A program made the position numbers and the translations under genes. From a virus: DNA of 64,000 nt. The DNA lies in IMG/VR virus record IMGVR_UViG_3300045988_159436; one strand, given 5' to 3'. The notes below the pieces were generated by a model that ran no database searches, was not told where the DNA came from, and worked only from the letters and a program-made list of their open reading frames with translations. Position 1 is the first letter of the stretch. Each line of letters opens with the position of its first letter. Positions 17,236 through 52,877 of the stretch are shown one piece after another.

Positions 17236-17508
17236 ATGGCATATAAAGTTTGGATAACAGCACGTGGGAAGAAATATTGGGTAACAAAATTTGTAAACAT
17301 TGCAGGAGTTCTTGAAATTCATTTTACACAAGATATAACAGATAATGTAGCTATATATCCCAGTAAGGATATAGCAAGACGAGCATTAATAGCTACTTTA
17401 AATCATATACCAGAAGCTGTAGAAGGAGGAATGTTGGAAATTCCTGCAAAAATAATTAAAAAAAAAAGGTTGACAAAAATCCGAAAGTATGCTATAATAG
17501 ACATATAA
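17236..17508 (+). CDS. hypothetical small protein (paralogue of 17017)
   Basis: RBS gaggttataaaaATG; A10 tract near the 3' end. Confidence 0.4.
   Translation: MAYKVWITARGKKYWVTKFVNIAGVLEIHFTQDITDNVAIYPSKDIARRALIATLNHIPEAVEGGMLEIPAKIIKKKRLTKIRKYAIIDI
17470..17498 (+). promoter_or_regulatory. sigma-A promoter (TTGACA-17-TGcTATAAT)
   Basis: -35 at 17470-75, -10 at 17493-98. Confidence 0.5.
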
Positions 17509-17526
17509 ATAAAGAGTAAAAACAAT

Positions 17527-17637: not shown

Positions 17638-19515
17638 ATGGCTTATGAAGCTTTCACTGGTGAAGAGTATATAGATACAGATTTAGTAGCGAAACTAAAT
17701 CAAAATTATGATGCTTGCGGAAAACTGGCAAGTAAAAACACATGGTCAGCAGATAATGACTTTACAGCAGGTTTGACAGTAAACAAAACTCCTACAGTAA
17801 ATACTGATGTATCGAATAAAAAATATGTAGATGATAGTATAGCTAACGGAGATGTAAATTCGGCTAAATATTTAAACATAACGAATTTTATCCCTTCAAA
17901 TAGCGATTTTAATGATTACAAAACTCCTGGAAAATATCAAGTACAAAGCTATACAGTAGCAAGCACAATGGCAAATATCCCCACTAGCTATAATGATGCA
18001 ACGCCAAGGAGCGGTGTATTAAGTGTATTGATTGGATTTAATGCCCTTAGAACAAGTTTAGTCCAGATTTATCGAACTTATGGGAGTAGTTATGTAGTTT
18101 CAAGAACGTATCAACGCTGTTTTTACCATGAAAATAGTCGTTGGACTGCATGGCGAGAAATTGCTTGTACTGATGAAGTAGGCTTATTAAATCAAGCAAA
18201 TACCTATACAGCATTAAATATTTTCAGGGCAAATATTGGCGTATCTAACGGAACTGCGGCAGGTAGCAGTGGTACTGTAAGTTTTGGTGTTTCTCCGACA
18301 GGTGAAACAGTACAAGCAAGAATTGGAACAGATAATTTAGGTGGATTATTTTATTACGCAAGCACAAATCAACCTCATGTATTTAGAGTTGGAACGAATA
18401 ATAATGTGTTTGTCATACGTGACGATAATACAAAAGTAACTTTTTCTAGCAATAATAAGTCCTTTGCAACGGTCACACATGATGGTGTTGCAAAATGGTT
18501 AGGTAATGCTAATACAGCAACAAAGTTACAAACCGCACGCACAATAAATGGAGTATCTTTTGATGGCACAGCAAACATTACAATAGCTGACTCTACAAAG
18601 CTCCCTATTGCTGGTGGAACAATGACAGGTAATTTAACACTTAAAGGCAATCCAACAGCAGATTTGATGGCGGCTACAAAAAAATATGTAGATGATAGTG
18701 TTGCAAGTGCAACAGCTGGTTTACTGAGTTCTAACAATATTTGGACTGGCAGTAATACATATAATAGGGATATTCATATAACAAATGGTTCGTCCGCTGG
18801 TTCGAGTGGTACGTTATATTTAGGTGTTAAACCTGCGAATGAAACAGTACAAGCAAGAATTGGAACAGATAATTTAGGTGGATTATTTTATTACGCAAGC
18901 ACAAATCAACCTCATGTATTTAGAGTTGGAACGAATAATAATGTGTTTGTCATACGTGACGATAATACAAAAGTAACTTTTTCTAGCAATAATAAGTCCT
19001 TTGCAACGGTCACACATGATGGTGTTGCAAAATGGTTAGGTAATTCTGCCACAGCAACAAAACTAGCAACTGCAAGGACTATCACAGCAAATCTTGCAAG
19101 TAGCACTGCTGGTAGCTTTGACGGCTCGGCAAATATAACAGTCGGAGTTACTGGTACTTTACCAATCGCAAATGGTGGAACAGGTTTAACTTCTGCTCCT
19201 TCTATGTTAGTAAACCTTGCTAGTACAACAGCCACATCTCCGTTACAGGCATCTCCACGTCCAGGTGTGACAGGGACTTTACCGATAGCAAACGGCGGCA
19301 CTGGACAGACAACAGCGGCAGGAGTAAGAAATGCTTTAGGGCTGGGAAACACGACAGGAGCAGTTCCTATAGCAAATGGAGGAACAGGTGCAACAACAGC
19401 CGCCGCCGCAAGGACTGCATTAGGATGTGCACCTGCATATACCTATAGTACAACTGATTTAACCGCTGGAAGCTCTAAATTAACCACAGGCACACTTTAT
19501 ATTGTGTATGAATAA
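17638..19515 (+). CDS. tail fibre protein with internal 205-bp duplication and PIANGGTG C-terminal repeats
   Basis: N-terminal domain paralogous to 10039; repeated (G)TLPIANGGTG motifs; RBS ggggtgagATGaATG. Confidence 0.6.
   Translation: MAYEAFTGEEYIDTDLVAKLNQNYDACGKLASKNTWSADNDFTAGLTVNKTPTVNTDVSNKKYVDDSIANGDVNSAKYLNITNFIPSNSDFNDYKTPGKYQVQSYTVASTMANIPTSYNDATPRSGVLSVLIGFNALRTSLVQIYRTYGSSYVVSRTYQRCFYHENSRWTAWREIACTDEVGLLNQANTYTALNIFRANIGVSNGTAAGSSGTVSFGVSPTGETVQARIGTDNLGGLFYYASTNQPHVFRVGTNNNVFVIRDDNTKVTFSSNNKSFATVTHDGVAKWLGNANTATKLQTARTINGVSFDGTANITIADSTKLPIAGGTMTGNLTLKGNPTADLMAATKKYVDDSVASATAGLLSSNNIWTGSNTYNRDIHITNGSSAGSSGTLYLGVKPANETVQARIGTDNLGGLFYYASTNQPHVFRVGTNNNVFVIRDDNTKVTFSSNNKSFATVTHDGVAKWLGNSATATKLATARTITANLASSTAGSFDGSANITVGVTGTLPIANGGTGLTSAPSMLVNLASTTATSPLQASPRPGVTGTLPIANGGTGQTTAAGVRNALGLGNTTGAVPIANGGTGATTAAAARTALGCAPAYTYSTTDLTAGSSKLTTGTLYIVYE
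18303..18507 (+). repeat. 205-bp perfect intragenic direct repeat, copy A
   Basis: Identical to 18840-19044 (offset 537 bp, in frame). Confidence 0.85.
18840..19044 (+). repeat. 205-bp perfect intragenic direct repeat, copy B
   Basis: Identical to 18303-18507. Confidence 0.85.
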
Positions 19516-19527
19516 AGAGGTGCGAAA

Positions 19528-20139
19528 ATGGCAAAAAGCATTTATATAGGTGTAGATGGTAAAGCAAGAAAAGCAAAGAATATATACATTGGAGTAGACG
19601 GCAAGGCAAGAAAAGTCAAAAAAATGTATATAGGAGTAAATGGCGTAGCAAGATTATGTTACACGTCCGAAGTAACAGTAACGGTCACAATCGTACAATC
19701 AGCAAATCAAACAATAACAGTAATTTGCAATGGCAATTCATATACATCAACATTCACAGCAGAAGCAGGGTCAACTTATACGGCAAGTATATCAGCAAGT
19801 ACAGGTTATAATGCAGGCACATTAAGCAGTACAAGTGGAACATTGACAGATAATATCACTATTAGTGCAACAGCCGCTACCTTGAAAACCTATACTTATA
19901 CGATTAATCAGCCTACAGGTGGAACGATTACTGTTACAGTTGATGGAGTTGCATATACATCAACCTTTACTGTTCAGCATGGCAAAACTGCAAGCAATTT
20001 GTGTACGCCGAATAGTGGATACACCTTTAAGACATTTACATTGTCAGGAAGCTATCAAACTGCAAGCGCAAATACATTAGCAATAAATGGCGATGCTGAA
20101 ATTGGAGCTGTATTAGAAAAGGAGGACGAAGATGTTTAA
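19528..20139 (+). CDS. hypothetical fibre-associated protein with 3 x IYIGVDGKARK repeats and duplicated Ig-like segments
   Basis: RBS aagaggtgcgaaaATG; 33-bp-period N-terminal repeats. Confidence 0.4.
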   Translation: MAKSIYIGVDGKARKAKNIYIGVDGKARKVKKMYIGVNGVARLCYTSEVTVTVTIVQSANQTITVICNGNSYTSTFTAEAGSTYTASISASTGYNAGTLSSTSGTLTDNITISATAATLKTYTYTINQPTGGTITVTVDGVAYTSTFTVQHGKTASNLCTPNSGYTFKTFTLSGSYQTASANTLAINGDAEIGAVLEKEDEDV

Positions 20140-20451: not shown

Positions 20452-20943
20452 TTGTCTGTCAGCCGTCTTCCAAAATTACAATTACACGCACTAACTGATA
20501 ATCCTATGAATATTACAGTCACAGGGAATATTACGGTTAGTGCGACACTAGAAAATAGTGGACAAATAGGTTTAACGGTCGGTCAATATACTTATGGCGG
20601 AAATCATTGGCAGTACGGTTATAGTAGCGCAGACTATGCATCAGATCAAGTATATGGCAGTCTAAGTCCTGATACGTTCTATGGAATTAAAATAACTTCA
20701 TTAATCGCAGGATTAATAGTTGATCCTAGTAGTCAGCAGCCTTTGCTACATATACTATTGATATCTTTTGCTAATAGTTTAAGTCAGAGTTCGATAAAAG
20801 TGACAATTAATAATAAGACTTATACGCTTAGTGCCCCTAATGGAAGCGCCTATTATTATGTAAATTTACCTGATAATGATACATCATTAGTGATGTGGTT
20901 ACAATCACAGGTAGGTAAGACCATAACTGTAAACCTAGAGTAG
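20452..20943 (+). CDS. ALTDNPM-box protein paralogue (start uncertain, possibly phase-variable)
   Basis: Contains LTDNPMNITVTGNITVSATLE, homologous to the 20993 and 21434 N-termini. No RBS of its own. Confidence 0.4.
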   Translation: MSVSRLPKLQLHALTDNPMNITVTGNITVSATLENSGQIGLTVGQYTYGGNHWQYGYSSADYASDQVYGSLSPDTFYGIKITSLIAGLIVDPSSQQPLLHILLISFANSLSQSSIKVTINNKTYTLSAPNGSAYYYVNLPDNDTSLVMWLQSQVGKTITVNLE

Positions 20944-20992
20944 CATTATTTTCAATATGTAATATTCCTCTGTGAGAAATCGGAGGAAAAAG

Positions 20993-21412
20993 ATGGCTTT
21001 GACAGACAATCCTATGAGTTTAGTGGTTACAGGCAATGTAACAGTTGGGGCAACATTAGAAGCAAGTGTACCGACTACTGAAACAAGATTGTTGAGTACT
21101 ATGGATGTGAATACAACGGTTACTATTACAGTGCCTGCGGGTGTAAAAGTATTAAAAGTATCAGGTGCTGTAGACCATGAACACGAAGGTGAAGTAGCTT
21201 TAGATGTATATTCAGTAAATAGCAAAAAATATTGGTTATCTGTATATAATTACGGATATGCTAGTGATATTTGGTATGTAGGAGTTACACCCAATAAAAG
21301 TTATACATTAAAGTTATCAACTGATAGCGAAACTGGCACTGAATCTGGAAGTGTAACTATTAGTTATTCACAATCAATTAACAATCAAACGCCTAAAGTA
21401 ACCGATTACTAA
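20993..21412 (+). CDS. ALTDNPM-box protein paralogue
   Basis: RBS cggaggaaaaagATG; MALTDNPMSLVVTGNVTVGATLEAS; ends KVTDY. Confidence 0.45.
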   Translation: MALTDNPMSLVVTGNVTVGATLEASVPTTETRLLSTMDVNTTVTITVPAGVKVLKVSGAVDHEHEGEVALDVYSVNSKKYWLSVYNYGYASDIWYVGVTPNKSYTLKLSTDSETGTESGSVTISYSQSINNQTPKVTDY

Positions 21413-21433
21413 ACTCAAAATCTGCCGTATATT

Positions 21434-21847
21434 ATGGCTTTAACTGATAATCCAATGTCAATTATCGTGACAGGCAATGTCACCATAGGAGCTAGCTTAG
21501 AGGCTAGTATTCCTAGTGGGGAAGTTACTTTAGCACATGGCAGTACCTTTACAGTTCCCGCAGGAATAACAGTATTAAGAGCTTCATTTAATCAATCTGG
21601 ATATTTAAGTTTGATTACGTATGTAGGTGTAACACCCAATAAATCCTATAAATTGTATTCTAATTGGACTGAATATAATTATGGAGAAGGTGAAGAATAC
21701 TTGTTGTATAATGCTAACAATAATAAATCTTGGATTGATTATACTATAGGCAATTTAGATGTTGATACTGGTTACACTGAGCTGAATTTTAAACTCGAAT
21801 GGTCGCCTACTATCAATTCACACGCAGTAGAAGTTACAGACTATTAA
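21434..21847 (+). CDS. ALTDNPM-box protein with a 27-aa constant N-terminus followed by a switchable C-terminal cassette
   Basis: MALTDNPMSIIVTGNVTIGASLEASIP, then the C-terminal part; ends VEVTDY. The 36-bp inverted repeat lies within codons 16-27. Confidence 0.45.
   Translation: MALTDNPMSIIVTGNVTIGASLEASIPSGEVTLAHGSTFTVPAGITVLRASFNQSGYLSLITYVGVTPNKSYKLYSNWTEYNYGEGEEYLLYNANNNKSWIDYTIGNLDVDTGYTELNFKLEWSPTINSHAVEVTDY
21480..21515 (+). repeat. 36-bp perfect inverted repeat, left copy (candidate inversion crossover site)
   Basis: tcaccataggagctagcttagaggctagtattccta; the exact reverse complement is at 22149-22184. Confidence 0.85.
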
Positions 21848-22148
21848 TAATCAGTAATATTAGGAGATTTCGCATTAATAGTTGGAGACCAAGATATCAA
21901 AATTCTAGCTCTATCATCCCTAGCACTTATCCAATATTTACTAGAGCTAGAATAATAGCAATAATAAAAATCATTGCTACCAACCACGACTGTTAACGTA
22001 TATGTTTTTCCACCAGTTACTCCTACATAATTAGGAGATTTTTCCCCCACATCCTGAACTTCAACAACTTTTATATTAGTGGGTATAGTCACACTCCATT
22101 TATTTGTAGAGCCCGGCGATGAATATGTAGGAGATTGTACACTTCCTG
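21844..22148 (-). other. promoterless alternative C-terminal cassette on the minus strand (ends ...NITDY)
   Basis: Minus-strand frame encodes TGSVQSPTYSSPG...SWSPTINAKSPNITDY, paralogous to the + strand C-termini, and begins exactly at the inverted repeat. No start codon or RBS of its own inside the segment. Confidence 0.45.
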
Positions 22149-22184
22149 TAGGAATACTAGCCTCTAAGCTAGCTCCTATGGTGA
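22149..22184 (-). repeat. 36-bp perfect inverted repeat, right copy
   Basis: Reverse complement of 21480-21515. Confidence 0.85.
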
Positions 22185-22298
22185 GGGGATTTAAGAAAGG
22201 AATTGTAGATGGTAAAAATACTAATAATGGTACTATTTTTCTTGTTCCCCACATTAGCGGATGCTCATGTTGTAATGGGTGGTGATAGGGGAGAAACA

Positions 22299-22796
22299 AT
22301 GAAGAATATAAAAATAGTAGAAAATTATTTTAAAAATAATTTTAATTTAACTTTACATAGAGATGTTGCTGTTATTAATGTTGGTTCAGTAAAAGAATAT
22401 GCGGATTTGTTAAAATACTTTAAAATAAATAATGCAGAAGAAATAGCTCAAAAAAGTGGAGCGGTAACATCTCGAAATTCTGTAATAGTTATAAATACTG
22501 CTGGAACAGATAAGAGTGATAGATTGTTTCTTTTAGCGCATGAAATGACACATCAATATCAGTTCCAGCAGAAGGGAAAAGCGGCTACAGAAGATATGGC
22601 AATGCTTGAAGGATTTGCTGATTTAATAGCCAATGACATAAGTGGAGCTTACATATCTATTGAAAATTATGGAATAAAGCGGGAAGATTTAAAGAGTTAT
22701 TCAGATTTCAACGAAGCACAAAAACAGTATGGAAATAAGGTATATGAACAGGCAAGATATTATGCAAGAAAAGAGAAGTTTTTAGATTATTACTAA
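22299..22796 (+). CDS. HExxH zinc-metallopeptidase-like protein (alternative start 22209 would add a signal-peptide-like N-terminus)
   Basis: LLAHEMTHQYQ plus a downstream EGFAD (gluzincin-like third ligand). RBS ggggagaaacaATG at 22299. The upstream in-frame extension MVKILIMVLFFLFPTLADA resembles a signal peptide. Confidence 0.4.
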   Translation: MKNIKIVENYFKNNFNLTLHRDVAVINVGSVKEYADLLKYFKINNAEEIAQKSGAVTSRNSVIVINTAGTDKSDRLFLLAHEMTHQYQFQQKGKAATEDMAMLEGFADLIANDISGAYISIENYGIKREDLKSYSDFNEAQKQYGNKVYEQARYYARKEKFLDYY

Positions 22797-22859
22797 GGAG
22801 CGTATAAAATGACTCATAGTGTGGGGAAAGTTGATAAAAAATAAGGAGGATGCTTTATC

Positions 22860-23075
22860 TTGAAAATTGTAGATAAGTTTTATATTCGGTGTGTTAGTTA
22901 TTTTGCACAAGAAGAGTGTGAAGAGTTGTGTTTACAGTTATTTCAATTAAGTGATGAAGTTCTTGCCTTATCAAATGAAGTAAACATAATGCTATTTGAT
23001 TGTTTTGATTTAAAGAAAGTATACTTAAATCAACGAGCATTAAATTGTTTAAGGAAAGCGGAAATTTGTCCGTAA
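22860..23075 (+). CDS. hypothetical protein
   Basis: RBS aaggaggatgctttatcTTG. Confidence 0.3.
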   Translation: MKIVDKFYIRCVSYFAQEECEELCLQLFQLSDEVLALSNEVNIMLFDCFDLKKVYLNQRALNCLRKAEICP

Positions 23076-25017: not shown

Positions 25018-25046
25018 TTGACAAAATTAAAAAAGTATGGTATAAT
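25018..25046 (+). promoter_or_regulatory. sigma-A promoter (TTGACA-17-TGgTATAAT)
   Basis: -35 at 25018-23, -10 at 25041-46. Confidence 0.6.
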
Positions 25047-25067
25047 AGATTTAACGAGGTGATAGTA

Positions 25068-25575: not shown

Positions 25576-25604
25576 TTGACAAAAGGAAAAAAGTGTGGTA
25601 TAAT
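25576..25604 (+). promoter_or_regulatory. sigma-A promoter (TTGACA-17-TGgTATAAT)
   Basis: -35 at 25576-81, -10 at 25599-604. Confidence 0.6.
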
Positions 25605-25629
25605 AGTATAAAAGATAGGAGATGGTTTA

Positions 25630-29763: not shown

Positions 29764-30174
29764 GTGAAAAGAGGGCAACTAACTAATCAATCTCTTCCAA
29801 TTATCGCCTTTAACTTAGAGAGTTGTTTTTTTAACAATAAAACAACGTTTGTTAATGAATTATTTAAAGATAAATATGAAATTTTGGGGATGCAGTATAA
29901 CCCTCAACATTTAGATACTGTTATGAAGATTTGGAAAAGCGGAAAATACTCAATTCATTTAGTGACTTATAAAGACCCAGATGAATGGAAAGAGCTTGAA
30001 GGATTTTTATTTGAAAAGTATTTATATTTTAACAATCTAGAATTTATTGAGGGCTTTAAGGAATTGAAGAGATTTTGTGAATTAAAGTATCTTTATTATG
30101 TAGACGATGGAGATAGATTATTTTTACCTAAGAACGCTGTTTCAATGCAAGAGTTTTTAGGGGTGATGAAATGA
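29764..30174 (+). CDS. hypothetical protein
   Basis: ORF with GTG start. Confidence 0.35.
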   Translation: MKRGQLTNQSLPIIAFNLESCFFNNKTTFVNELFKDKYEILGMQYNPQHLDTVMKIWKSGKYSIHLVTYKDPDEWKELEGFLFEKYLYFNNLEFIEGFKELKRFCELKYLYYVDDGDRLFLPKNAVSMQEFLGVMK

Positions 30175-31418
30175 GCGTAGATTCTAATTTTATTTTAAAA
30201 TTATTAGAAACTAAGGATTGGAAAACAGTAGCGGAGAAAAGAATATCTGCCAAGTTTTTCAACCCAGCTTATAAGAGAGTGTTTAATTATATTTCAGACT
30301 TTAAAATCAAATATGGTGATATCCCTAGTGCAGAGTCATTAAAAGCAAGATTTCCAGAGCTTGACTTTACTGGAAGGGTAGCAGAGCCATTTGAATTTTA
30401 TTGTGATGAATTAAGAAATAAAGTTAAGCATAATTTATTAAGGGACACAATACTTTCTGTGCAAACAGATATAAACTCATTGAATACAGAAGAAGCAGTT
30501 AAGAAGTTACAGAAACTAATACAAAATATTGATTCTGAAATTGTTCTTAACGATACCTGTAAAATAGGTGAAAGAACAGAAGAGCGTTTTGAGCAGTACA
30601 AAGAGCGGCAAAAAACAGGTGGCATTTCTGGGATGCCTATAGGTTTATTGCCGATAGATAAACAGATAGGTGGGGTTAAAGAATTAGACCTTATAACTTT
30701 CTTAGGATACACAGGAACTGGTAAAACGTGGCTCTTGTGCATTATTGCTGTAGCAATGGCAAAAATGGGATATAAGGTTTTGTTTTTAACTAAAGAAATG
30801 TTGCCAGCTCAATTAATAGACAGAATTGATGCAGTATGGTCAGGGATAAGCTACTCTCGTATTAAAGATGGTCAGTTATCGCCACAAGAAGAAGAGAAGT
30901 ATTATAAGTATCTTTTAGAAGAAGCACCAAAATATAAAGATAAGTTAATTGTTGAATTAGTCGAGGGCGGTGTAATATCTTGTGGAAGTTCCATTGATTT
31001 ACATAAGCCAGATGTCTGTTTAATTGATGGTGGTTATTTAATGGCTGATGATTCTGAGGATGATGACTGGCGGGGAATTTTAGAAGTATGGAGAGGATTT
31101 AAAGCATTAGCTCGAAACAGAAAAGTCCCAATTCTTTGCACCTCACAGTTAAAGGGAGAGACTGCGACATTAAGTAATATTTCTTATGTCAAAGCCTTAG
31201 CCCAAGAAGCGGATGCTGTTTATGGTTTAGAGCAAGATAAAACAGATAAGGCGGAGAAAGAGATAAAAATAGTAACTTTAAAAGTGCGTGATGGCGAATG
31301 GAAACCACCTTTTAAAATGAGTTGGGATTTTACTGAAATGAAACATGATTTATTATATGTGGAAGAAGAAAAGAAAAGGACACCAATAGCGGTAAAACAA
31401 ATACAAAGGATTGAGTAG
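30171..31418 (+). CDS. DnaB-like replicative helicase
   Basis: Walker A GYTGTGKTW, RecA-like C-terminal domain (ILCTSQL), N-terminal DnaB-like helical domain. Confidence 0.6.
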   Translation: MSVDSNFILKLLETKDWKTVAEKRISAKFFNPAYKRVFNYISDFKIKYGDIPSAESLKARFPELDFTGRVAEPFEFYCDELRNKVKHNLLRDTILSVQTDINSLNTEEAVKKLQKLIQNIDSEIVLNDTCKIGERTEERFEQYKERQKTGGISGMPIGLLPIDKQIGGVKELDLITFLGYTGTGKTWLLCIIAVAMAKMGYKVLFLTKEMLPAQLIDRIDAVWSGISYSRIKDGQLSPQEEEKYYKYLLEEAPKYKDKLIVELVEGGVISCGSSIDLHKPDVCLIDGGYLMADDSEDDDWRGILEVWRGFKALARNRKVPILCTSQLKGETATLSNISYVKALAQEADAVYGLEQDKTDKAEKEIKIVTLKVRDGEWKPPFKMSWDFTEMKHDLLYVEEEKKRTPIAVKQIQRIE

Positions 31419-33808: not shown

Positions 33809-36800
33809 TTGTTTCATCAAAGATTCTTTAAATTAACTATTGTCAATAAAGAGAATGTTGATAGATTTTTTGAGGAATATGAACGAGCGAAACAAATTTT
33901 CTTTGACTTTGAAACTTCTGGATTAGATGTAAGATATAAGGGGAAAGATTATGCAGTAGGATTAACAGTAGCCTTTGAAGATAGTGTCAGTAAGGAAGTA
34001 TACTATATTCCTTTCAGACACTATTTTGAAGGTAGCTATATTGGTTGTGGGAGACTCGATTACCGTAAAAACACTGCGGTTTTTGATGATGCTAAAAATT
34101 TTCCTGATTTTTTACCAGAAAAGTTTTCAGGAGAATATTATAATATGGATATTGTTGATTTTATGGAACGATTGAAGCCTTTAATGGAAAATGGCGGGAA
34201 AGAGTATATAGCCCATCATATTTCATTTGACTTACATTTATTTGCAAATGAAGGTGTAGATATAGTAAAAGTGTTTGAAACAAATACTTTTACTGATACA
34301 CAAATAGCTGTACATACTTTAGATGAAGAACAAGAGAAGAATTTAGAAGCAGTAACTGAAACAATTTTCTCTGTAAAAAAATCTCATTTTAAAGATACTA
34401 TTATGACAGTTACTAAAGAGGAAAAGAAACTTTTGGGATTAGCTTCTAATAGTAATGCTAGTTTTCAACACGTTCAGATTCCAATAGGAGCACAATATTC
34501 AGCAGAAGATGTATATTTTATGAAAGAAATGTATGAGCCAATTCTTAATGCGTTAAGAGAAGATGGTGGTTACGAATATTTTAGAGAAGTACGAATGCCA
34601 TATATGAAAGTTTTGTGGAAAATGGAACGTAATGGAATCAAAGTTGACATAGAAAAACTTGAAGGTATGATAAAATTAGCAGAAGAAAAATTGGAAGAAT
34701 TAACATACAAAATATATGAAGTAGTAGGAGCTAAATTTAATATTAACAGTGGTCAACAGTTATTTGAGATATTATATGGTTTTAAAAAGAAATTAAAGGA
34801 TAAGAAAACAGGGGAATATAAAGAGTCTTTTAATGAAGATTTAGTAGCATTAAATTTTGGTTTTAAGCCTATCGCATGGACAGAGGGCGGGAAATCAAGA
34901 GATATGGTATTAAGAACACCAAAAACAGATAAAGATGCGCTAAAGAAATTATTAAGACAAACTCCTAAAAGAGAAGATGGGCATAAATTAATTAAACTTC
35001 TACAAGATTATTTTAAATTAACAAAATTGTATACAGCATTTATGCTGGGTATAAAAGAAAAAATATATTGTGATGGAAAAGTACATCCAAGCTTCAACCA
35101 AAATGGTTGTCTTGTAGCAAACACTTTAATTCCTACAGATAGGGGATTGTTCCGCATTCAGGATTTAGTAACAGATGCTTTAGTTGATGGTGAATTTGTT
35201 TCTAAAACCTATACGCTATTAAATCGAAATTTAGAACCTGAAAAGACTTCCCATATAGTTAAATATGAGAATAGGAATACTATAAAAATTCGTACTGCTT
35301 TAGGGGTTACTATCGAAGGAACTGAAAATCACCCAATAATATGTAATAAATATTCTTCAAAAGATTTATACCTTAATAGGAATAGTTGTCGTTTTAAAAA
35401 TTTATATAAGAAAAAGGATGCTCAAATTTTCAAGCGTTTAGATGAGATAAATACTGAAACTTATGTAGCAGTCCCTTATGGTTATAATTTTTTTGCTAAA
35501 GATTATCAGAAACTTGAATATGAATATGTTGCAATGCGTAGTGGATTTAAGCAAGTTAAATTACCAGAAATTTTAGATGAAGATGTGGCAGAGTTTATGG
35601 GGATGTATTATGCAGATGGGTGTTTATCAGACACAAATGGTACTTTTACTATTTGCTTTACTAATGGAGATTCCTGTGTAATAAATCGTATACAAGAATT
35701 GTCTTTAAGACTTTTTGGAATAAAAGCACATGTTCGTGACTGTCATCCTCATAGAAATTCTTTGGATATTAGAATTAGTGCTAAAAGACTTGCTAGTATT
35801 GAGAAAGCTTTTCAGCTTAAAAGAGGATGCACAAACAAAGTTATTCCTGATATTATTTTACAGTCCCCAAGAAGTGTTGTAATAGCTTTCATAAAAGGAA
35901 TGACATTAGATAGTTATTTTGTAGAAGAATCTAATAAAAAACAGCTAAGATTTACTGTTTCAAATGAGCAAAGTCTTTTTCAACTTCAAACATTGCTATT
36001 GAATTTAGGTATTATTGGTGGGGCAAGACATCTCAATACTTATACTGGAAATGTTTATATGCTAACATTAACTAATGGAGAATATTTAAAGTTTAGAGAT
36101 ATCGTAGGATTTGTTCAAAAGAAAAAGTATAAAGATTTTGAGTATCAAAGAATTTCTGGTCAATATTTAGTAGATGAAGGTAATTCATTAATTTGGGTAA
36201 AGGTTAAAGAAATAGATAAAGGAAGGGCAGATGTTTATGACTTTACTCTACCCGAAACACATAGTTTTATTTCAAATGGGTTTATTAGTCATAATACATC
36301 ATCATTTAGGCTAAGTTGTTCTGACCCGAACTAAACAGATGGTTCGCTAGGCAAGAAATTCCTAGAAAAATTAACTGCTCTAACTCGGTGAAACTCCACC
36401 AATAAAAGGACAACACCGAACTAAGTTAGTTAGCGATAACTAAAAAGTGTAACGACTAGAGAAAGTAGGCTATATTAGTCGAAATCTCCACGAATGGGCA
36501 GAGCCTAAACCGAAAGGCATGGCTAAGATATAGTCTGAACTCCGTACAATGGTAAAGACGGAGAAGCGGGGATAAAGAGCCCCGTGATAACATAATTGTT
36601 CAACAGCTTCCTAAGCCTTTAGAAGAGCCTAAAGATGGTGAAGATAGAAGTTACTATGATTTTTGGATACAATTTGAAATAAGAAGTTTAATGATAGCTG
36701 ACAATGAAGACGAAGTAATTGTTGCGGCAGATTATCATGCTCTGGAAAAGTTTTTAACAGCGCATTTTTCAAAAGACCCATTGTTGATTAAAATGCTAAA

Positions 36801-37968
36801 AGAGAAACTTGACCCACATGGAACAGTAGCAACAATTATTTTTCCAGAATTAGCAGATGCAGACCCAAATTCAATTAAGAAGTTAGCACCACATAAAAGA
36901 AATGTGGCTAAGACTGTAGGTTTCGCTCAAATCTAGGGTGAAGTAAAATCCCTCTCAAAACGGTGAAAGCCTAACAGGTTAATACCGTGCCGAACTCTGT
37001 GAAAACAGCGGTGTAGAGACTTATAATGTATCGGCTATGTTAAAACATAAATCAATCGAATACATTTAATGGGGGATAGGAGCAAGCTCCTAAAGGTATA
37101 GTCCGACACTCTTGGCAACAGGAGAAAACAGAATGGTAGATTATGGCGGTTCAAAAATAGCGGTAGCAAGAAATCTAGAGATAGATGAAAAGACCGCACA
37201 AGAATATATAGATAGATATTTTGAAGGTTTTGCAGGGTTAAGAAAATACGATAGAGATTTAATTCAATTTGCTAGAAAGAATGGTTATATAGAAACATTA
37301 TTTTCTGGGCATAAACGTCACTTGTGGGGGATAAATTCCCAAGATGGCAGAACACGTTCATATTATGAGCGGCTAGCAGTTAATTCAAAATCACAAGGGG
37401 CGGCGGCAGATTGCACAACATTAGCACAGATAGATGTGGATAATGATGTAGTATTAAAATCTATTGGTGCAAGACAAATACTTAATGTACACGATAAACT
37501 TTAGTCAAATAACTTGTCGTGTTTAAACTCTTCGATATGCTGGAACGCAAAAATACAGTATTACCAAAGAGTGACAATATACTGTATATCACGAAAGTGT
37601 GTAGCCAATCAGCAGGGAGGAAATGAGAGCATTTCACCCTCACAGACTAACAAAAGCATAGAATAGTAGGAACTGCACATTACTACTATTTGAGAAGTGA
37701 GTAGAGTACGGCTTTGTTGAGATACAAAGTGGGTTGACATCCTTAAATGGAAGCGGGGAGGCATAGTGCAGATGTATGATATAGTCGAGTGTGTTTTTAA
37801 GCATACGTTATGGAGATAGTCATGGTTTGTCCTAAAAAGTTTGCAGAATTATGCAAGCAGAGATTAACTTTTCATATGGAAAATTGTTTACCAAGCAGGG
37901 GTATAAATTTAACAATTCCATTAGAAGCCGTAGGAGATATAGGTAGAACTTATAGTGAAGCAAAATAA
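33809..37968 (+). CDS. family-A DNA polymerase (3'-5' exonuclease + polymerase) in 4 exons, with an in-frame intein in exon 1
   Basis: Exo I motif FFDFETSGLD; after the intein, SSFRLSCSDPN (RLSSSDPNLQNIP motif); exon 2 VAADYHALE (motif A) and KRNVAKTVGF (motif B); exon 3 ...SQGAAADC...NVHD (motif C); exon 4 ...EIVMVCPKK...HMENC...IPLEAVGDIGRTYSEAK matching Pol I C-termini. Exons approximately 33809-36332, 36668-36923, 37131-37495, 37813-37968. Confidence 0.8.
35108..36295 (+). mobile_element. intein (396 aa) with LAGLIDADG homing-endonuclease domain
   Basis: Begins with Cys (CLVANTLIP) directly after HPSFNQNG, ends ...FISHN followed by Thr. Internal FMGMYYADG and FIKGMTLDSY LAGLIDADG-type motifs. 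Confidence 0.75.
36333..36667 (+). mobile_element. group I intron 1 in the polymerase gene (no ORF; boundaries +/- 2 nt)
   Basis: Interrupts the DPN|LQ motif. Contains the S-like core aagatatagtctgaac and paired elements (cgctaggcaag...cctag); exon U before the 5' splice site. Confidence 0.6.
36924..37130 (+). mobile_element. group I intron 2 in the polymerase gene (small, no ORF; boundaries approximate)
   Basis: Interrupts motif B (TVGF | MVDYGGS); contains aaaggtatagtccgac core-like element. Confidence 0.5.
37496..37812 (+). mobile_element. group I intron 3 in the polymerase gene (no ORF)
   Basis: Exon ends VHD (...cacgaT), intron ends ...tatgG, downstream exon starts EIVM. Contains the gatatagtcgag S-like element. 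Confidence 0.65.
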
Positions 37969-37971
37969 TGC

Positions 37972-38000
37972 TTGACAAAAATAAGATTATGTGGTATAAT
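37972..38000 (+). promoter_or_regulatory. sigma-A promoter (TTGACA-17-TGgTATAAT), overlapping the polymerase stop
   Basis: -35 at 37972-77, -10 at 37995-38000. Confidence 0.6.
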
Positions 38001-38015: not shown

Positions 38016-38390
38016 ATGACAATTAAAGTAGGTGGACAGATGGCAGATGATTTAGTTTACCGAGGAGATGCTTCTTCTTCTAAAACATCTTCTGGTGAAT
38101 ATGAAGAAGTTTTAAAACTTTTAGAAGCTCAGGTAGGAATGCTTGAAGACATAAATAATCGTTTACAAAAGTGTGTTGTTGGGGAGACCATTTCAGTTGA
38201 AAGTGTAGCCCCAGAAGGGTTAGTACCAAATGTTCTTGGTATACGTTTAAGTAGATTAGAGGATAAGTTAGAAGTTATTATTAGAGATTATTCTGATTGT
38301 GTTGATGTAATTGAAGAGAAATTAGGCAAGATGACATTACAGGGGGGATACTTTGCCAGATTTAAAGCAGTTAGTAAAGACTATAAATAA
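38016..38390 (+). CDS. hypothetical protein
   Basis: RBS aaggaggtaaagaatATG. ORF-track start 37968 lies upstream of the predicted transcription start. Confidence 0.4.
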   Translation: MTIKVGGQMADDLVYRGDASSSKTSSGEYEEVLKLLEAQVGMLEDINNRLQKCVVGETISVESVAPEGLVPNVLGIRLSRLEDKLEVIIRDYSDCVDVIEEKLGKMTLQGGYFARFKAVSKDYK

Positions 38391-39444
38391 AGCGCATGGT
38401 AAGAACGCTATACGTTTAGGGGCAACTATTAAAGAGCAGATGTCCTATAAGATTTCAACAGGTAGTGTGGCTTTAGATTATGTAATTGGTGGTGGAATAC
38501 CTTCTGGAAGATTAATAACTATTGCAGGAGCTTATTCTACTGGTAAATCATTATTAGCTTATAAGATGATTGCTAATGTTCAAAAAATGAAAAAGAAACT
38601 TGTTACAGTTGATGGCGAAGATATAGAAATTGTAGCAGAAGATGGTGATATTCCTTTAACTTGTGCTTTGATACAAACGGAACAAGGTAGTCTTACAAAA
38701 GAATGGGCAATAGAAAACGGCATAGATTTAGAGTCACTTTTATTTTGCCAACCTGATGGAATGGAAGAAGCTTTAGATATAGCTATAGCCTTGCAGAGAG
38801 CAGGAGTAGAATTGATTGTTATTGATTCTTATGCCGCTTTACTACCTACTAAAGTATTAACTTCTGACTTTGATGAAAGCTATCAAATGGGAATCAAGCC
38901 TAAAATGTTAGGTGAGTATCATGGTAAATTTCAGTTGTTTAATAATGCATTAGAGCGAGAAGGAAAACTTCCTTCTACGGTTGTTGCAATTAATCAGTTG
39001 AGAGAGAAAATTGGCGTGATGTATGGAAGTCCAGAGTATACAACAGGTGGTAGAAGCACTGGATTTACAAATACTTTAGAGATTAGATTACGTATGGGTG
39101 ATACTATTGCAGTAGGTAGTGGAGAAACAAAAAGAATTGTAGGTAAGACAATCAAATTTAGAATCGAGAAAAATAAAGCTGGCGTTCCTTATGGAACAGG
39201 TGAGTATGATATTTATACAGACACTTGTGATTATATTCAAAGAGGGGATATTGATAACGAAAAAGCATTAATTATGATTGCAGTATTGTTAGGAATAGTT
39301 GAGCGCAGAGGTGGCTGGTATTACTATAATGGTGAGCAGTTATCACAGGGGCAAGATAATTTAATTAAATTATTGCGTTCTAACAGAGCTTTATTTGAAG
39401 AGATAAGGGAAAAGGTGTTAACATCAGATGAGCATATACAATAG
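38353..39444 (+). CDS. recA: RecA-family recombinase
   Basis: GGIPSGRLITIAGAYSTGKS (Walker A) and AINQLREKIGVMYGSPEYTTGG match RecA core motifs. TTG start with RBS aggggggata. Confidence 0.8.
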   Translation: MPDLKQLVKTINKAHGKNAIRLGATIKEQMSYKISTGSVALDYVIGGGIPSGRLITIAGAYSTGKSLLAYKMIANVQKMKKKLVTVDGEDIEIVAEDGDIPLTCALIQTEQGSLTKEWAIENGIDLESLLFCQPDGMEEALDIAIALQRAGVELIVIDSYAALLPTKVLTSDFDESYQMGIKPKMLGEYHGKFQLFNNALEREGKLPSTVVAINQLREKIGVMYGSPEYTTGGRSTGFTNTLEIRLRMGDTIAVGSGETKRIVGKTIKFRIEKNKAGVPYGTGEYDIYTDTCDYIQRGDIDNEKALIMIAVLLGIVERRGGWYYYNGEQLSQGQDNLIKLLRSNRALFEEIREKVLTSDEHIQ

Positions 39445-44585: not shown

Positions 44586-46446
44586 ATGAAGATAGAAAAT
44601 GTTAGAATATATGGTTTGCCAGAGAGCTTAATAGCCTCTGGCTATCCTATGTTATCTACAGAATTAAATGAAGAGGAATTTTTAAAGGAAGTAGAAGCGA
44701 CAGAAAAAATAATTAAAAATAAATCTGGTAGTAATAAACATATAGAAAGAGGTATTAGATTAGGCAATTCTCCTTTAGGTAGCGGACATAATTGTGCTTT
44801 AAAGGGAATTACAGTACAATTTGATTTAACTTTGCCTCAGTATACATGGCAACAGTTACAAAGATATCACTATATTGATTTTATAAGCTCAATGGGCGTT
44901 TTAGGCAGTAATGCCTAAAATTATCAGACGGAGAACCTGTAAATGCAGGGTGTCAGAAATGGCTAACGGTTCAGAACTAGAGATAGTTTATGAGTAAGGG
45001 AAGCTAAACCTTTCGAGGCAAGCTAATACCGTGCTGTATAAATTTGAAAAGGAAATTATTATGGAAAAAATTGAAGATATGATTATTTTAGAGTATTTAC
45101 CACTTCAAAAAGTAAGAGTGAGATGCTCTATTTGTGGAAAAGAAAGAATAGTATCTTTAAGAAATTTAAGGAGAAAAGGCAATAGACATACTATAAATAC
45201 TTGTAAAGAATCTTTTGTTAATTTACTAATAGGAAAAGAGCTAGGCGATTATGTTGTTTCTGGTTCTGCTCCTAAAAATAAAATAGAATTAAGCTGTAAG
45301 ATATGTGGGCATAAAACGTCTTGTTATGAAAGTGGGCTAACCCCAAGATTCCATAATGGTAGCACTTGTAAAGAAGATTTTGCTAAAAGTTTTCTAGGAA
45401 AATCTACAGATGCTTTTAAGATAGTTGATTATTTTAAAAAGGGACAACAGTATCAATTAGTGTTAGAATGTTTATCCTGTGCAACACGAAGGAATATACC
45501 TATTAATAAAATAGATACATATTCTTTTTCTCATAAAGATTGTTTTTATTTTCTTCCTAATGATAACATAAAGAAAACTATAAGTTATCGTTGGGAGGGG
45601 ATAAATCAACGTGTTTTTAATCCTAACAATAATAACTATACGTATTATGGAGCAAGAGGTGTGCAGAATAAATTCAAAGATAAAGTTGATTTCTATTATC
45701 ATTTTTATCCCGAATTATCTAAAAATTCTTCTCTAACTATAGATAGAATAGATGTTAATGGGGATTATAGCAAAGAAAATACAAGACTAATTACAATAAA
45801 AGAACAGCAGTCTAATAAAAGAGAAACTCATTATTTTATAGCACAAGCTGGTGATAAATGCTATGTTTCTAATAACACTATGGAATTTGGAAAAAGATTT
45901 GGCATAAATGGTAGAAGCATAGGAAATTGTTTGAGAGGACAATCTAAAACTGCTGGTGGCTTTAAATTCAAAGAAATTACAAAAGAGCAATTTGAGAATT
46001 TATGTAGTGTAACGACTAAAGGGATAATTGTTATCCAAGAGGTTGTAGGTGAAATTCCTACGCTGTAGCACCGTCCCCCTGAAAAGGGTGAAGAGATAGT
46101 CTATTCCCTTCAAATACGCCGAAAGGCGGGGTATAAAGCAATGTCAAAAATGCATCGTATTACAATGCTTGATTTAGATAAACATTGTCCTTTAGTGGAT
46201 AATGAATTATTAAAAATTTCACAAAGATATGTAAATGCTTATAAAAAAGGTGAGATTGGCATAGATGCTTGTTTATCTAATATTCCTATGGGATTACAGA
46301 TGACAGCACGAATGACTACAAACTATTTACAACTATTATCTATTTATCATCAGAGAAATACCCATCGTTCAGATGAATGGAAAGAATTTTGTTCTTGGGT
46401 AAAAACACTGCCTATGTTTAAAGAGTTGTGTTTAAAAGGAGAATAA
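44586..46446 (+). CDS. ThyX-like (flavin-dependent thymidylate synthase family) gene split by a group I intron
   Basis: Exon 1 (44586 to about 44915) and exon 2 (about 46136-46446) together show the ThyX-like pattern ...LPQYTWQQLQR... / ...HRI...NELLKISQRY... / ...RNTHRSDEWKEF (compare APIFVARQWFRHR, ELSGRY, RADSHAQWEI). Exact splice junction not determined. Confidence 0.4.
44916..46135 (+). mobile_element. group I intron carrying a homing-endonuclease ORF
   Basis: 5' part ggttcagaactagag (R-like) and 3' part agagatagtctattc (S-like) flank the ORF; sits between two halves of one gene. Confidence 0.55.
45031..46068 (+). CDS. intron-encoded homing endonuclease (zinc-finger + HNH_3-like domain)
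   Basis: N-terminal CSICGKE/CKICGH zinc knuckles; C-terminal IDRIDVNGDYSKENTRLITIKEQQSN resembles the HNH_3 motif. Start may be Met11 (45061). Confidence 0.5.
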   Translation: MLYKFEKEIIMEKIEDMIILEYLPLQKVRVRCSICGKERIVSLRNLRRKGNRHTINTCKESFVNLLIGKELGDYVVSGSAPKNKIELSCKICGHKTSCYESGLTPRFHNGSTCKEDFAKSFLGKSTDAFKIVDYFKKGQQYQLVLECLSCATRRNIPINKIDTYSFSHKDCFYFLPNDNIKKTISYRWEGINQRVFNPNNNNYTYYGARGVQNKFKDKVDFYYHFYPELSKNSSLTIDRIDVNGDYSKENTRLITIKEQQSNKRETHYFIAQAGDKCYVSNNTMEFGKRFGINGRSIGNCLRGQSKTAGGFKFKEITKEQFENLCSVTTKGIIVIQEVVGEIPTL

Positions 46447-51035: not shown

Positions 51036-52877
51036 ATGAAAAATGGATATACGTTATTTCTTTCTGGCGTTGAACCAGAAGAAAATTTCTATACTGCAAT
51101 AGACGTTACTTCTAGTCTATTGCAGTCTTATTGGTATATAAAGCGGCGTGGAAAAGATAAAATTGTAGAACGTTTTGATAAAGTTAAGAAGAACTCTTTG
51201 TTAATTGATAGTGGAGCACATACCTTTCTCACTTTAGCAGAATATCAAGATAAGACAGTAGATTATTGGGAAGAGTATATAAAAGGGTATATAGCTTTTG
51301 TAAGAAAACATAGAGAAAAAGTATTTGCTTGTGTTGAAATGGATATAGATACTTTAGTAGGAACAGAACAAGTAAATAAATGGAGAGAAGAATACTTTCA
51401 TTCTTTAGAGGAAGAGGGCATTCCTGTTATTTATGTTTATCATGCAGAAAAAGGATTGGAAGAGTGGGAAAGAATGTGTAAAGCATATCCCTATGTAGGA
51501 TTCTCTTATAATGAATTTGAAGATGCTATTTTAATTGATAAATTATTTGAAATAGCAATGGAATATAAAACTAAAGTACATGGTTTTGCAGTATCGGGGT
51601 ATAGGGAATTATTAAAACATGAGTATTATACAAGTGACAGTACAAGCTGGATTACAGGAGCTCAATATGGAGAATTAAACTATTTTGAAGGTGGAAAATT
51701 AAAGCGGTTAACAAAAGAGAAATGGAAAAATGAATATTATGCAAAAATACTTGATTTATGCACAAGTAAAAAGTTACTAGAAGCAGAGGCTCCTTATGAA
51801 TTAATGCGTATTAGTGCTTTAAGCTATAAGAAATTAGAAGAGCATGTAAATGATATATTTAGAGGTAAAAGATATTGGGTTGGAAGAAAGGAAGTGTCTA
51901 AAGTAGCGAGTAAGGAAAATTTACCGCCAGTAGAATGGTTTTCAACTGATATGGAAGATTGGCAAGAATGGGCACAGAAATTAAATATAGATACTAACCT
52001 TCCTGATGAAGCAGGTAAATCATTAGTTGTTGCCTGTTACAATTTTGTGACAGATAATCCTATTATAAATGAGTATCCTCTTGAAGAGTTAATTGATTTA
52101 TGTGGGCTTTTTGGTGATAAGAAGTCAAATACTCTTACCAAGTGCCGAAAAGCCCTTAAAGAGCACTTTACAGCTCTCTTAAAGGGCAGTATGGATTTAT
52201 CCACTTTGACAGAAGAAGAAGTAGAAGAGAAAAAAAATGTAGCTCCAAAAGAGCGGGAAGAGTATGTTCAAGAAAAAGAGTATGTAGAATGTACTGTTAG
52301 CAAGGAAGAGTGTCAAGGTTTATTAAAAGGATTATTAACTTCTGGTGTGACAGATGAAGCAGAGAAAGCTTTAATTGAACAGGGAATAGAGCCTATTTAT
52401 GATGAGAATGGAAATATTAAAGCAGGTATTAAACGAATAAAGAAAAGAAAATCTTTAAGTTCAAGTGTGATGCCAGAGTTAAGTTGCAATATTTGTACTA
52501 AAGCACGGAGATGTCCTTTATATGAAGAAGGAATGCTTTGTGCTTATAATAAAATGTTTAAGCAATTTGATACAAGAAATCCCGAAGATGTAGTAGATGC
52601 TATGAGCAGTATTGCAAATTTAAGTTTAGAAAGATTATCAAGGGCTGTAACATTTGAAAAGTTAGATGGTGGCTTAAATACTAAAGAAGTAACAGAGACA
52701 ATGGCAGAAGCATGGAAATATCTTGAAAAGATACAAGAAATTCAAACAAAGAGTGATAAAGTTATAGCAGAGCGTAGAGTTGTAACTTCTTCTAATGGCG
52801 ATGTAGAAGTAAGAGAAAGTGTAACAGGAAATCCGCAAGGTTTATTGTCTGAGATTCTAAAAACAAAAAAAAGTTGA
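51036..52877 (+). CDS. tRNA-guanine-transglycosylase-fold protein, candidate DpdA-like 7-deazaguanine DNA transglycosylase, with extra C-terminal domain
   Basis: LLIDSGAHTFL resembles the TGT catalytic DSGGFQ box; co-located with queC/D/E; C-terminal Cys cluster (CNICTKARRCP...C). Tentative. Confidence 0.35.
   Translation: MKNGYTLFLSGVEPEENFYTAIDVTSSLLQSYWYIKRRGKDKIVERFDKVKKNSLLIDSGAHTFLTLAEYQDKTVDYWEEYIKGYIAFVRKHREKVFACVEMDIDTLVGTEQVNKWREEYFHSLEEEGIPVIYVYHAEKGLEEWERMCKAYPYVGFSYNEFEDAILIDKLFEIAMEYKTKVHGFAVSGYRELLKHEYYTSDSTSWITGAQYGELNYFEGGKLKRLTKEKWKNEYYAKILDLCTSKKLLEAEAPYELMRISALSYKKLEEHVNDIFRGKRYWVGRKEVSKVASKENLPPVEWFSTDMEDWQEWAQKLNIDTNLPDEAGKSLVVACYNFVTDNPIINEYPLEELIDLCGLFGDKKSNTLTKCRKALKEHFTALLKGSMDLSTLTEEEVEEKKNVAPKEREEYVQEKEYVECTVSKEECQGLLKGLLTSGVTDEAEKALIEQGIEPIYDENGNIKAGIKRIKKRKSLSSSVMPELSCNICTKARRCPLYEEGMLCAYNKMFKQFDTRNPEDVVDAMSSIANLSLERLSRAVTFEKLDGGLNTKEVTETMAEAWKYLEKIQEIQTKSDKVIAERRVVTSSNGDVEVRESVTGNPQGLLSEILKTKKS

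Follow-up and report, generated by a model that had tools for sequence, protein, structure and literature searches.

Three predicted group I introns and one intein in the family-A DNA polymerase gene of an uncultured gut phage

Are four neighboring open reading frames (ORFs) with non-coding gaps between them four genes, or the pieces of one? This question was raised by the polymerase locus of a 64,000-nucleotide (nt) stretch of viral DNA (IMG/VR record IMGVR_UViG_3300045988_159436), which as a whole is called the window below. The listing for 32.5-39.5 kb has same-strand ORFs of 841 amino acids (aa; 33809-36334), 81 aa (36691-36936), 130 aa (37112-37504) and 52 aa (37810-37968), which are spread over three frames, with the stretches between them stopped in all frames. 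In Pfam, the 841-aa ORF matched DNA_pol_A_exo1, DNA_pol_A, Intein_splicing and LAGLIDADG_3, while positions 146-217 of the DNA_pol_A profile were found in ORF 36691-36936 and positions 219-337 in ORF 37112-37504; judged from these profile positions, the second and third ORFs hold consecutive parts of one domain. Gene callers divided the polymerase alike in every related metagenomic contig examined. A first-pass annotation had proposed a single family-A polymerase gene in four segments, separated by three ORF-less group I introns and carrying an intein in exon 1. Our analysis led to the same structure with corrected boundaries: with a probability of roughly 0.92, positions 33809-37968 (+) are one family-A DNA polymerase gene of four exons, three group I introns and one intein, and encode the replicative enzyme of an uncultured gut siphophage-like phage with a genome of ~100 kb.

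The joined exons give 3369 nt in frame, encoding a precursor of 1122 aa, or 726 aa when the intein is taken out. On PF00476 (DNA_pol_A) the 726-aa product scored 260 bits (cut-off 34.3; best stretch residues 371-723), the separate fragments ranging from 38 to 100 bits, with 100 bits for ORF 37112-37504 alone. DNA_pol_A_exo1 was also above its cut-off (35.4 bits against 23.6). Motifs A (DYxxxE), B (KxxxxF/GxxYG) and C (HDE) of family A were present as AADYHALE at residues 488-495, KRNVAKTVGFAVDYGG at 545-560 and NVHDEIV at 672-678, and all catalytic motifs were intact in the exons. Alignment of the conceptual spliced product to Pol I, suggested earlier as a means of fixing the junctions, showed no gap at any of the four, whether against the polymerase of Bacillus phage BCD7 (33% identity, E-value (E) 3e-130) or Bst Pol I structures (E 2.5e-55), and the same was true of eight uninterrupted metagenomic homologues. 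Residues G433, T434, N445, G553-F554-A555, D557-Y558-G559-G560 and D675-E676 were invariant in those homologues, and M1/F2, invariant in nine homologues, support the TTG start of exon 1. Each of the four elements sits within a conserved catalytic motif of the polymerase.

The junctions were first set by hand, by requiring U just before the 5' site, G as the last intron base and an alignment to Pol I motifs free of gaps, and were then checked on metagenomic relatives that are 95-99% identical in flanking DNA and are without one or more of the elements. These relatives fixed all four element boundaries to the nucleotide. In the intein-less alleles L002-L004 and L013-L019, with flanks ~98% identical, exactly 35108-36295 was missing (1188 nt, in frame), leaving the empty site ...AATGGA|ACATCATCA..., which in L013 reads ...CAAAATGGA|ACATCATCA...; the intein-less allele P0002 was contiguous across exon 1. 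The empty site of intron 1 in L013 and L014 was ...GAACCGAACT|ACCAACAG (...CCGAACT|ACCAACAG...). Positions 36927 and 37136 were adjacent in L013, L016 and L017, which lack intron 2 (...GGTTTCGCT|GTAGATTATGG...), as were 37495 and 37813 in L018, L023 and L015, which lack intron 3 (...GTACACGAT|GAGATAGTC...). The joined exons of the window are predicted to read ...GACCCGAACT|TTCAACAGCTT... across intron 1, ...GGTTTCGCT|GTAGATTATGG... across intron 2 and ...GTACACGAT|GAGATAGTCAT... across intron 3. Other junctions considered for intron 1 (DPNYNIIVQQLP) and intron 2 (QI|YGG, AQI|MVDYGG and more) break the U-1 and terminal-G rules or add gaps; the chosen ones are confirmed because the empty-site alleles join there.

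Several details of the first-pass annotation had to be changed accordingly. Intron 1, given as 335 nt, was only 266 nt long in the comparison with empty-site alleles, and it interrupts a Phe codon after its first base, giving DPN|FQQLP where DPN|LQ had been read. The estimate of ~207 nt for intron 2 came close to the measured 208 nt, and ORFs 36691-36936 and 37112-37504, taken as exons, both match DNA_pol_A; however, the exons behind them start at 36599 (92 nt upstream of the ATG) and at 37136 and not at the ORF starts. For intron 3, the length of 317 nt, the T at 37495 and the terminal G at 37812 were exact as first described. An in-frame stop follows each 5' splice site within 0-2 codons (TAA at the intron 1 site, TAG two codons into introns 2 and 3), as is usual for phage introns. 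The intron of phage Pf-WMP3 likewise starts with UAA (PMC3428280).

All three inserts combined a U.G pair in P1, a terminal (omega) G, an excision that restores the ORF and a P3-P9 core, as group I introns do. P1 helices of 7-9 bp were predicted without constraint and kept in all relatives: 36327-36333 with 36340-36346 in intron 1 (U36332.G36341; terminal G 36598), 36920-36928 with 36936-36944 in intron 2 (U36927.G36937; terminal G 37135), and 37489-37497 with 37514-37522 in intron 3 (U37495.G37516). The P7-like elements noticed at first reading were found again as 9-mers of the P7 3' strand, GATATAGTC at 36527-36535 (intron 1) and 37778-37786 (intron 3) and GGTATAGTC at 37095-37103 (intron 2). 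On both strands of the window the motif [AG][AGT]TATAGTC occurred four times, three of them inside the inserts. The fourth, at 22082 in a 360-nt gap, was rejected as an extra intron, since Rfam returned nothing for 21300-22900 and the motif is contained in an ORF on the minus strand of an invertible segment.

A search with the covariance model RF00028 gave no match in any insert at the gathering score of 50 bits, and a scan of the whole window with Rfam, at gathering and at E<=0.1, found none of the three introns. A scan limited to 36200-38000 (1.8 kb), in contrast, returned three full-length RF00028 matches (model positions 1-253), with 40.5 bits (E 2e-8) for intron 1, 38.4 bits (E 8e-8) for intron 2 and 21.7 bits (E 8e-3) for intron 3. 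The gathering score is a curated cut-off and not a biological defining feature, and low scores on this model are frequent for small phage introns that have additional helices like P7.1/P7.2. The first-pass annotation had regarded scores below threshold in all three inserts as sufficient to reject the introns; we consider this too strict, because the E-values are low and independent comparative evidence settles the point. It is the filters and not the model that lose the introns in the whole-window cmscan, and other small introns could be missed likewise. Because all three escape Rfam both at gathering and in the permissive scan of the whole window, virome surveys probably count too few small ORF-less phage introns.

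The Rfam alignments placed P3-P9 and the conserved J8/7-P7 sequence (A/G)ATATAGTC in each intron, together with a helical insertion of 30-60 nt that separates the 5' strand of P7 from the 3' strand of P3 and shows as Rfam insert states following ...GACUA. For covariation, each intron with 10 nt of upstream exon was aligned to its variants, the divergent ones being L012 (82% identical) for introns 1 and 3 and L029-L031 (55% identical) for intron 2. Unconstrained RNAalifold recovered P1 with the splice-site U.G, the long-range P3, P4-P6 and P9 in all three introns, and also gave an extra helix at the place of P7.1/P7.2. Compensatory pairs numbered 18, 12 and 13 in introns 1, 2 and 3, against at most 3, 2 and 2 in slid controls with pairing partners shifted by 1-3 columns, and 99% of cells were paired overall (99.4% in intron 2). 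P7 of intron 2 (GACU/AGUC), tested as a pseudoknot, was 100% paired and invariant; for P7 of introns 1 and 3 the support consists of the Rfam alignment and the conserved GATATAGTC. The introns have a G+C content of 38-41%, compared with 31.7% for the window. They share no sequence beyond the core motifs and therefore represent three separate lineages. That they are ORF-less in this genome was also correct, the longest stop-free stretches being 28, 28 and 53 codons in introns 1, 2 and 3.

The 396-aa LAGLIDADG intein proposed for exon 1 was borne out as well. Cys1 (35108) directly follows ...HPSFNQNG, and ...FISHN396 is followed by Thr (+1, 36296). Block B (TENH, residues 72-75, 35321-35332), block F (VYDFTLPETHSFISNG, 36233-36280) and block G (...FISHN, 36281-36295) were located, as were two LAGLIDADG motifs, EFMGMYYADG (35591-35620) and IAFIKGMTLDS (35882-35914). 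The acidic residue is kept in each, and the intein may for this reason still home. Both intein profiles were above their cut-offs in the HMM search (PF14890, 51.7 bits against 35.8; PF14528, 46 bits against 22.5). The terminal residues, the TxxH of block B, the two profiles and the in-frame insertion with intein-less alleles place the element in class 1. The junction left by its removal, NQNG|TSSFRLS, was gapless in the homologue alignment, and homologous inteins (39-48% identity) occur at the same G|T site in seven relatives whose exteins are 45-57% identical. Inteins of bacterial DNA polymerase I have been recorded before (PMC4760082).

Table 1. Proposed parts of the polymerase gene, by position in the window
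Feature	Position	Strand	Description	Profile or alignment
Exon 1, whole	33809-36332	+	includes intein 35108-36295	
Exon 1, N-extein part	33809..35107	+	TTG start; 3'-5' exonuclease domain and N-terminal polymerase part, ends ...KVHPSFNQNG	PF01612, PF00476
Intein	35108..36295	+	396 aa, class 1, LAGLIDADG domain	
Exon 1, C-extein part	36296..36332	+	TSSFRLSCSDPN and first base (T, U-1) of Phe codon	
Intron 1	36333..36598	+	266 nt, group I, ORF-less	
Exon 2	36599..36927	+	(F)QQLP..., motif A (AADYHALE), first half of motif B (KRNVAKTVGFA)	PF00476
Intron 2	36928..37135	+	208 nt, group I, ORF-less	
Exon 3	37136..37495	+	VDYGG (second half of motif B) to motif C ...NVHD	PF00476
Intron 3	37496..37812	+	317 nt, group I, ORF-less	
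Exon 4	37813..37968	+	EIVMVCP...IPLEAVGDIGRTYSEAK and stop	aligns to C-termini of BCD7 polymerase, Bst Pol I and 8 homologues

A protein search, with roughly 400 homologues, revealed that the phage belongs to a large metagenomic clade (contigs of up to ~100 kb), from which ~30 loci were retrieved and mapped by tblastn and blastn. Their polymerase products fall into length classes: ~750 aa is the uninterrupted protein, 445 aa is exon 1 without the intein, 841 aa is the type of the window, products stopping at the intron 2 site have 586 aa and those stopping at the intron 3 site 707 aa, and ~1060-1140 aa has the intein and no introns. A class of 670-673 aa is also present. About 25 near-identical loci (95-99% in the flanks) show many combinations of the four elements (Table 2), and the arrangement of the window recurs identically in independent assemblies from several samples (ENA, Logan, IMG/VR).

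Table 2. Combinations of the four elements in the window and in near-identical loci (+, present; -, absent; intron lengths in nt)
Locus	Intein	Intron 1	Intron 2	Intron 3
L013	-	-	-	890
L014	-	-	208	317
L015, L018	-	266	208	-
L016	-	266	-	317
L017	-	464	-	317
L019	-	266	208	317
L023	+	266	715	-
L024, L033	+	830	208	890
L025	+	830	208	317
L005-L008, L010, L020-L022, window	+	266	208	317

In some of these siblings the same introns carry ORFs. The 830-nt form of intron 1 (L009, L024, L025, L033) has a 574-nt insertion in the P8 loop with an ORF of 190 aa, the stop codon of which lies inside the P7 sequence. Intron 2 can hold an HNH endonuclease in its P8 loop (PHROG E 2.5e-12; L023, L031), and intron 3, in forms of 890-895 nt (L012, L013, L024, L027, L033), a LAGLIDADG_2 endonuclease in its P6 loop (Pfam E 4e-11). 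Decay of these ORFs was also seen: intron 1 of L017 keeps an internally deleted remnant of 68 aa, and L029 only the C-terminal half of the HNH gene. Together, the ORF-bearing, decaying and ORF-less forms are the classical picture of a homing cycle. Since siblings carry the same introns with ORFs, the label ORF-less is valid for this genome only, and its copies are read as stripped-down or not-yet-invaded versions.

The 190-aa ORF of sibling intron 1 (L009:8717-9289; also in L024, L025 and L033, with the remnant at L017:6529-6735) is an orphan. It had no Pfam or PHROG match, a word-index search returned only the ORF itself, and a full HMMER search of 1.84 billion representatives yielded one 55%-identical homologue and fragments. 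An AlphaFold2 single-sequence model was unusable (pLDDT 53). By eye, the N-terminus 'ISYIYVIIYKDKSVYIGQS' ('YIYVI...VYIGQS') resembles the GIY-YIG motif, and the ORF may encode a divergent or new homing-endonuclease family. A wider and rather doubtful idea is that four unrelated selfish elements segregate almost independently in one phage species, the ORF-less introns being maintained in trans by endonucleases of co-infecting siblings and the 190-aa ORF belonging to an unrecognised homing-endonuclease family.

Insertions were also seen in other replication genes of the relatives. The recA gene of the window (38353-39444) is uninterrupted, while L012, L013, L016, L017, L020, L022 and L023 have an intron of 296-1075 nt exactly at 39030|39031, which makes this position of the window an unoccupied homing site for a fourth intron. 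Part of this recA intron is 77-84% identical to a stretch of intron 3 of the window (within 37644-37755). In L005 and L007 (1349-3611) the DnaB gene lies in pieces of 189 aa and 217-220 aa around a 256-aa ORF with a weak LAGLIDADG_3 match, and the insert is probably either an intein or an endonuclease-carrying intron; DnaB of the window (30171-31418, 415 aa) is intact.

Expression of the gene could proceed as follows. The 4160-nt region would be transcribed as one pre-mRNA, on which ribosomes would be halted by the in-frame stops early in each intron. Each putative ribozyme would fold with the last 6-9 exon bases paired to an internal guide sequence (P1), the U.G at the cleavage site, and with a P3-P9 core containing the guanosine pocket in P7; two guanosine-initiated transesterifications would then let each intron excise itself, leaving the 3369-nt ORF. 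From the precursor translated on the spliced mRNA, the intein would remove itself by an N-S acyl shift at Cys1, transesterification to Thr+1 and cyclisation of the terminal Asn, ligating ...NQNG to TSSFRLS... to give the 726-aa polymerase. In this reading the gene has been colonised by four independent selfish elements, of which the ORF-less introns may persist by vertical descent together with recombination or trans-homing during co-infection.

In a much less likely reading, the elements are what they seem, but at least one is not competent to splice alone: an ORF-less intron might need a maturase or host factor or be a dead relic. The allele would then give little or no active polymerase or would rely on co-infecting helpers. 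This is favored by the low score of intron 3 on RF00028 (21.7 bits), by the decay intermediates in the population (L017, L029) and by the absence, whether through loss or from the start, of endonuclease/maturase ORFs in the three introns, while siblings keep theirs. However, the four-element allele was found in at least eight independent contigs, and its 841-aa exon-1 product stands for 229 member sequences; a lethal allele would not be expected to recur like this when no other polymerase was found in the gene module. The helices, moreover, are almost completely paired with compensatory changes, and U-1, the terminal G, P1 and the catalytic motifs of the exons are intact, so a splicing defect appears improbable. 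Much less credible still is a split polymerase, in which the four pieces would be translated apart and assembled non-covalently or by trans-splicing, with the inserts as ordinary spacers. Gene callers do list ORFs of 841, 81, 123/130 and 48/52 aa as separate genes, but the exons end within codons and motifs (at intron 1 after base 1 of a codon), exon 2 starts 92 nt before its first ATG, the ATG of the exon 4 ORF straddles the 3' end of intron 3, and the inserts, which fold as group I ribozymes, are missing without trace from near-identical alleles. Equally little weight is given to chimeric assembly: mis-joins could have made apparent insertions, as the window and all relatives are metagenome assemblies, yet the identical arrangement was obtained from different samples and by different assemblers, and the insertions are precise, in frame or consistent with splicing, and structured. 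As the empty sites join exactly at the assigned junctions, pseudogene decay, a split gene and an assembly artefact are ruled out.

Some points nevertheless weigh against a single gene with three self-splicing introns and an intein. All three introns stay below the RF00028 gathering score, intron 3 with 21.7 bits only, and the whole-window scan was blank. The covariation comes from few sequences and, for introns 1 and 3, a single divergent relative (L012/L027) supplies essentially all of it; since the same alignments yielded the structures that were tested, these have an advantage over the slid controls, and P7 and most of P4 are uninformative because they never vary. IA/IA2 is a candidate subgroup for the introns, IA2 being that of typical phage introns with P7.1/P7.2 helices. 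RNA and protein splicing are both predictions from sequence, as is any activity of the intein endonuclease.

The surroundings of the gene fit a phage replication module, with DnaB, DnaG primase and an HU-like protein upstream and RecA downstream. The same module is present in Bacillus phage BCD7, whose polymerase, the nearest deposited relative, is uninterrupted. Siphophage-like genes elsewhere in the window include those for a tape-measure protein and a central tail fibre. Among 50,697 phage records, no match was obtained by megablast with the entire locus or by blastn with intron 1 or intron 3. In the search for a host, no relatives were found among 185,579 bacterial or archaeal genomes, and the window has no tRNAs.

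Further features of the window were recorded on the way. In the region of the tail-fibre tip, a segment at 21480-22184 (ORFs 21434-21847 on the plus and 21844-22299 on the minus strand) is invertible. It is bounded by a perfect 36-nt inverted repeat within coding sequence (21480-21515 / 22149-22184), and when 21516-22148 was inverted in silico, an intact alternative ORF resulted that retains the N-terminus (MALTDNPMSIIVTGNVTIGASLEASIP) of the small protein and exchanges its C-terminus. Among IMG/VR relatives, nine have the orientation of the window and three the inverted one, the inversion being clean in L043 and L045 (~98% identity). The segment is probably a host-range switch of the tail-fibre tip; within the window, no invertase was found. 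Two more paralogous cassettes lie upstream of it (20452-20943 and 20972-21412). The tail-fibre ORF 17638-19515 contains a 300-nt direct repeat (18233-18532 / 18770-19069, 88% identity), and its C-terminal part is GC-rich (0.55 at 18976-19565) with repeated 'GTLPIANGGTG' motifs. The repeat was rejected as the target of a diversity-generating retroelement, the mismatches not being adenine-specific, and resembles a plain duplication of a domain. A strong sigma-70-type promoter, TTGACAAAA-N-TATAAT, occurs in three copies 75-100% alike (17470-17509, 25018-25057, 25576-25615), probably phage early or middle promoters. A free-standing gene for a 345-aa HNH endonuclease lies at 45031-46068 (PHROG E 8e-20), and a 613-aa homologue of queuine tRNA-ribosyltransferase/DpdA at 51036-52877 (PHROG E 5e-55; ~130 aa beyond the matched profile span), which may point to 7-deazaguanine DNA modification.

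At the level of annotation, the result replaces four 'genes' (841, 81, 130 and 52 aa) and three 'intergenic' gaps with one replicative polymerase of 726 aa. Genomes that are 95-99% identical and carry varied combinations of the elements make a compact natural data set for the homing cycle, with its invasion, fixation, endonuclease decay and loss. The close spacing of the elements, the intein ending 37 nt before intron 1, could serve studies of interference. Motif B (GFA/VDYGG) is put forward as a probable additional intron site in family-A polymerases.

Related arrangements are known from other phages. Landthaler & Shub reportedly described in 1999 three group I introns in one gene, orf142 of Staphylococcus phage Twort (mentioned in PMC11878797), which resembles the present case in having three small group I introns in a single phage gene and differs in being a tail tube protein gene with no intein. 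Introns together with an intein are said to have been found by Lazarevic et al. in 1998 in bnrdE/bnrdF, the ribonucleotide reductase (RNR) genes of Bacillus prophage SPbeta. In crAss-like Zeta/Delta phages, introns and inteins occur together in essential replication genes (PMC7886860). Unlike in SPbeta and the crAss-like phages, where the host genes (RNR, PolB, MCP, TerL) and lineages are others, both kinds of element here lie within ~2.7 kb of one family-A polymerase gene. Among solved structures, the intein is closest to the LAGLIDADG inteins of archaeal V-ATPase subunit A (PDB 7qsu/7qss/7qst; PMC8966425; E 1e-17), over the endonuclease domain and the C-terminal splicing block; these have another extein, belong to another domain of life, and are similar mainly in the endonuclease domain.

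Among T7-like phages, gene 5 (DNA polymerase) of PhiI and W31 holds an HNH-carrying group IA2 intron (Bonocora & Shub 2004, cited in PMC3428280), and Escherichia phage HZP2 has the same element. The last ~37 nt of intron 2 of the window (37097-37133; P7 3' strand, P9 and 3' end) are 89% identical to the 3' end of the HZP2 intron (NC_048164.1 19635-19671). The HZP2-type intron splits motif C (VH|DE, site 881, verified in HZP2), 3 nt upstream of the site of intron 3 of the window (VHD|E), whereas the similar intron 2 splits motif B, which is the O-helix, with GFA on one side and VDYGG on the other; the similarity spans 18% of intron 2, and the T7-like intron has an HNH ORF. As a side observation, the HNH-carrying group I intron in gene 5 and the last polymerase exon are unannotated in the records of HZP2, Yersinia WX1/WX2, Klebsiella mtp4 and several Salmonella phages.

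The nearest parallels are in family-A polymerase genes themselves, where published intron sites (E. coli numbering) are 674 in SPO1, SP82, Bastille and Pf-WMP3, 676 in phiL7 and 881 in PhiI and W31 (PMC3428280), and where genes of Bastillevirinae have 'two or even three introns' with HNH, GIY-YIG or LAGLIDADG ORFs or none (PMC11878797). Intron 1 of the window, placed by motif alignment only, falls in the DPN(L/F)Q hotspot (~675/676) shared with sites 674 and 676. The likeness to SPO1, SP82, Bastille and the Bastillevirinae extends to family-A polymerase genes in phages of low-G+C hosts with group I introns at conserved motifs. Unlike them, the phage described here is without nucleotide similarity to any deposited phage, has only ORF-less introns in its polymerase gene and carries an intein as well. 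Published examples already include phage polymerase genes that hold as many as three group I introns, and genes with both introns and inteins, and the current understanding of either kind of element is unchanged by a locus that brings them together in one family-A polymerase.

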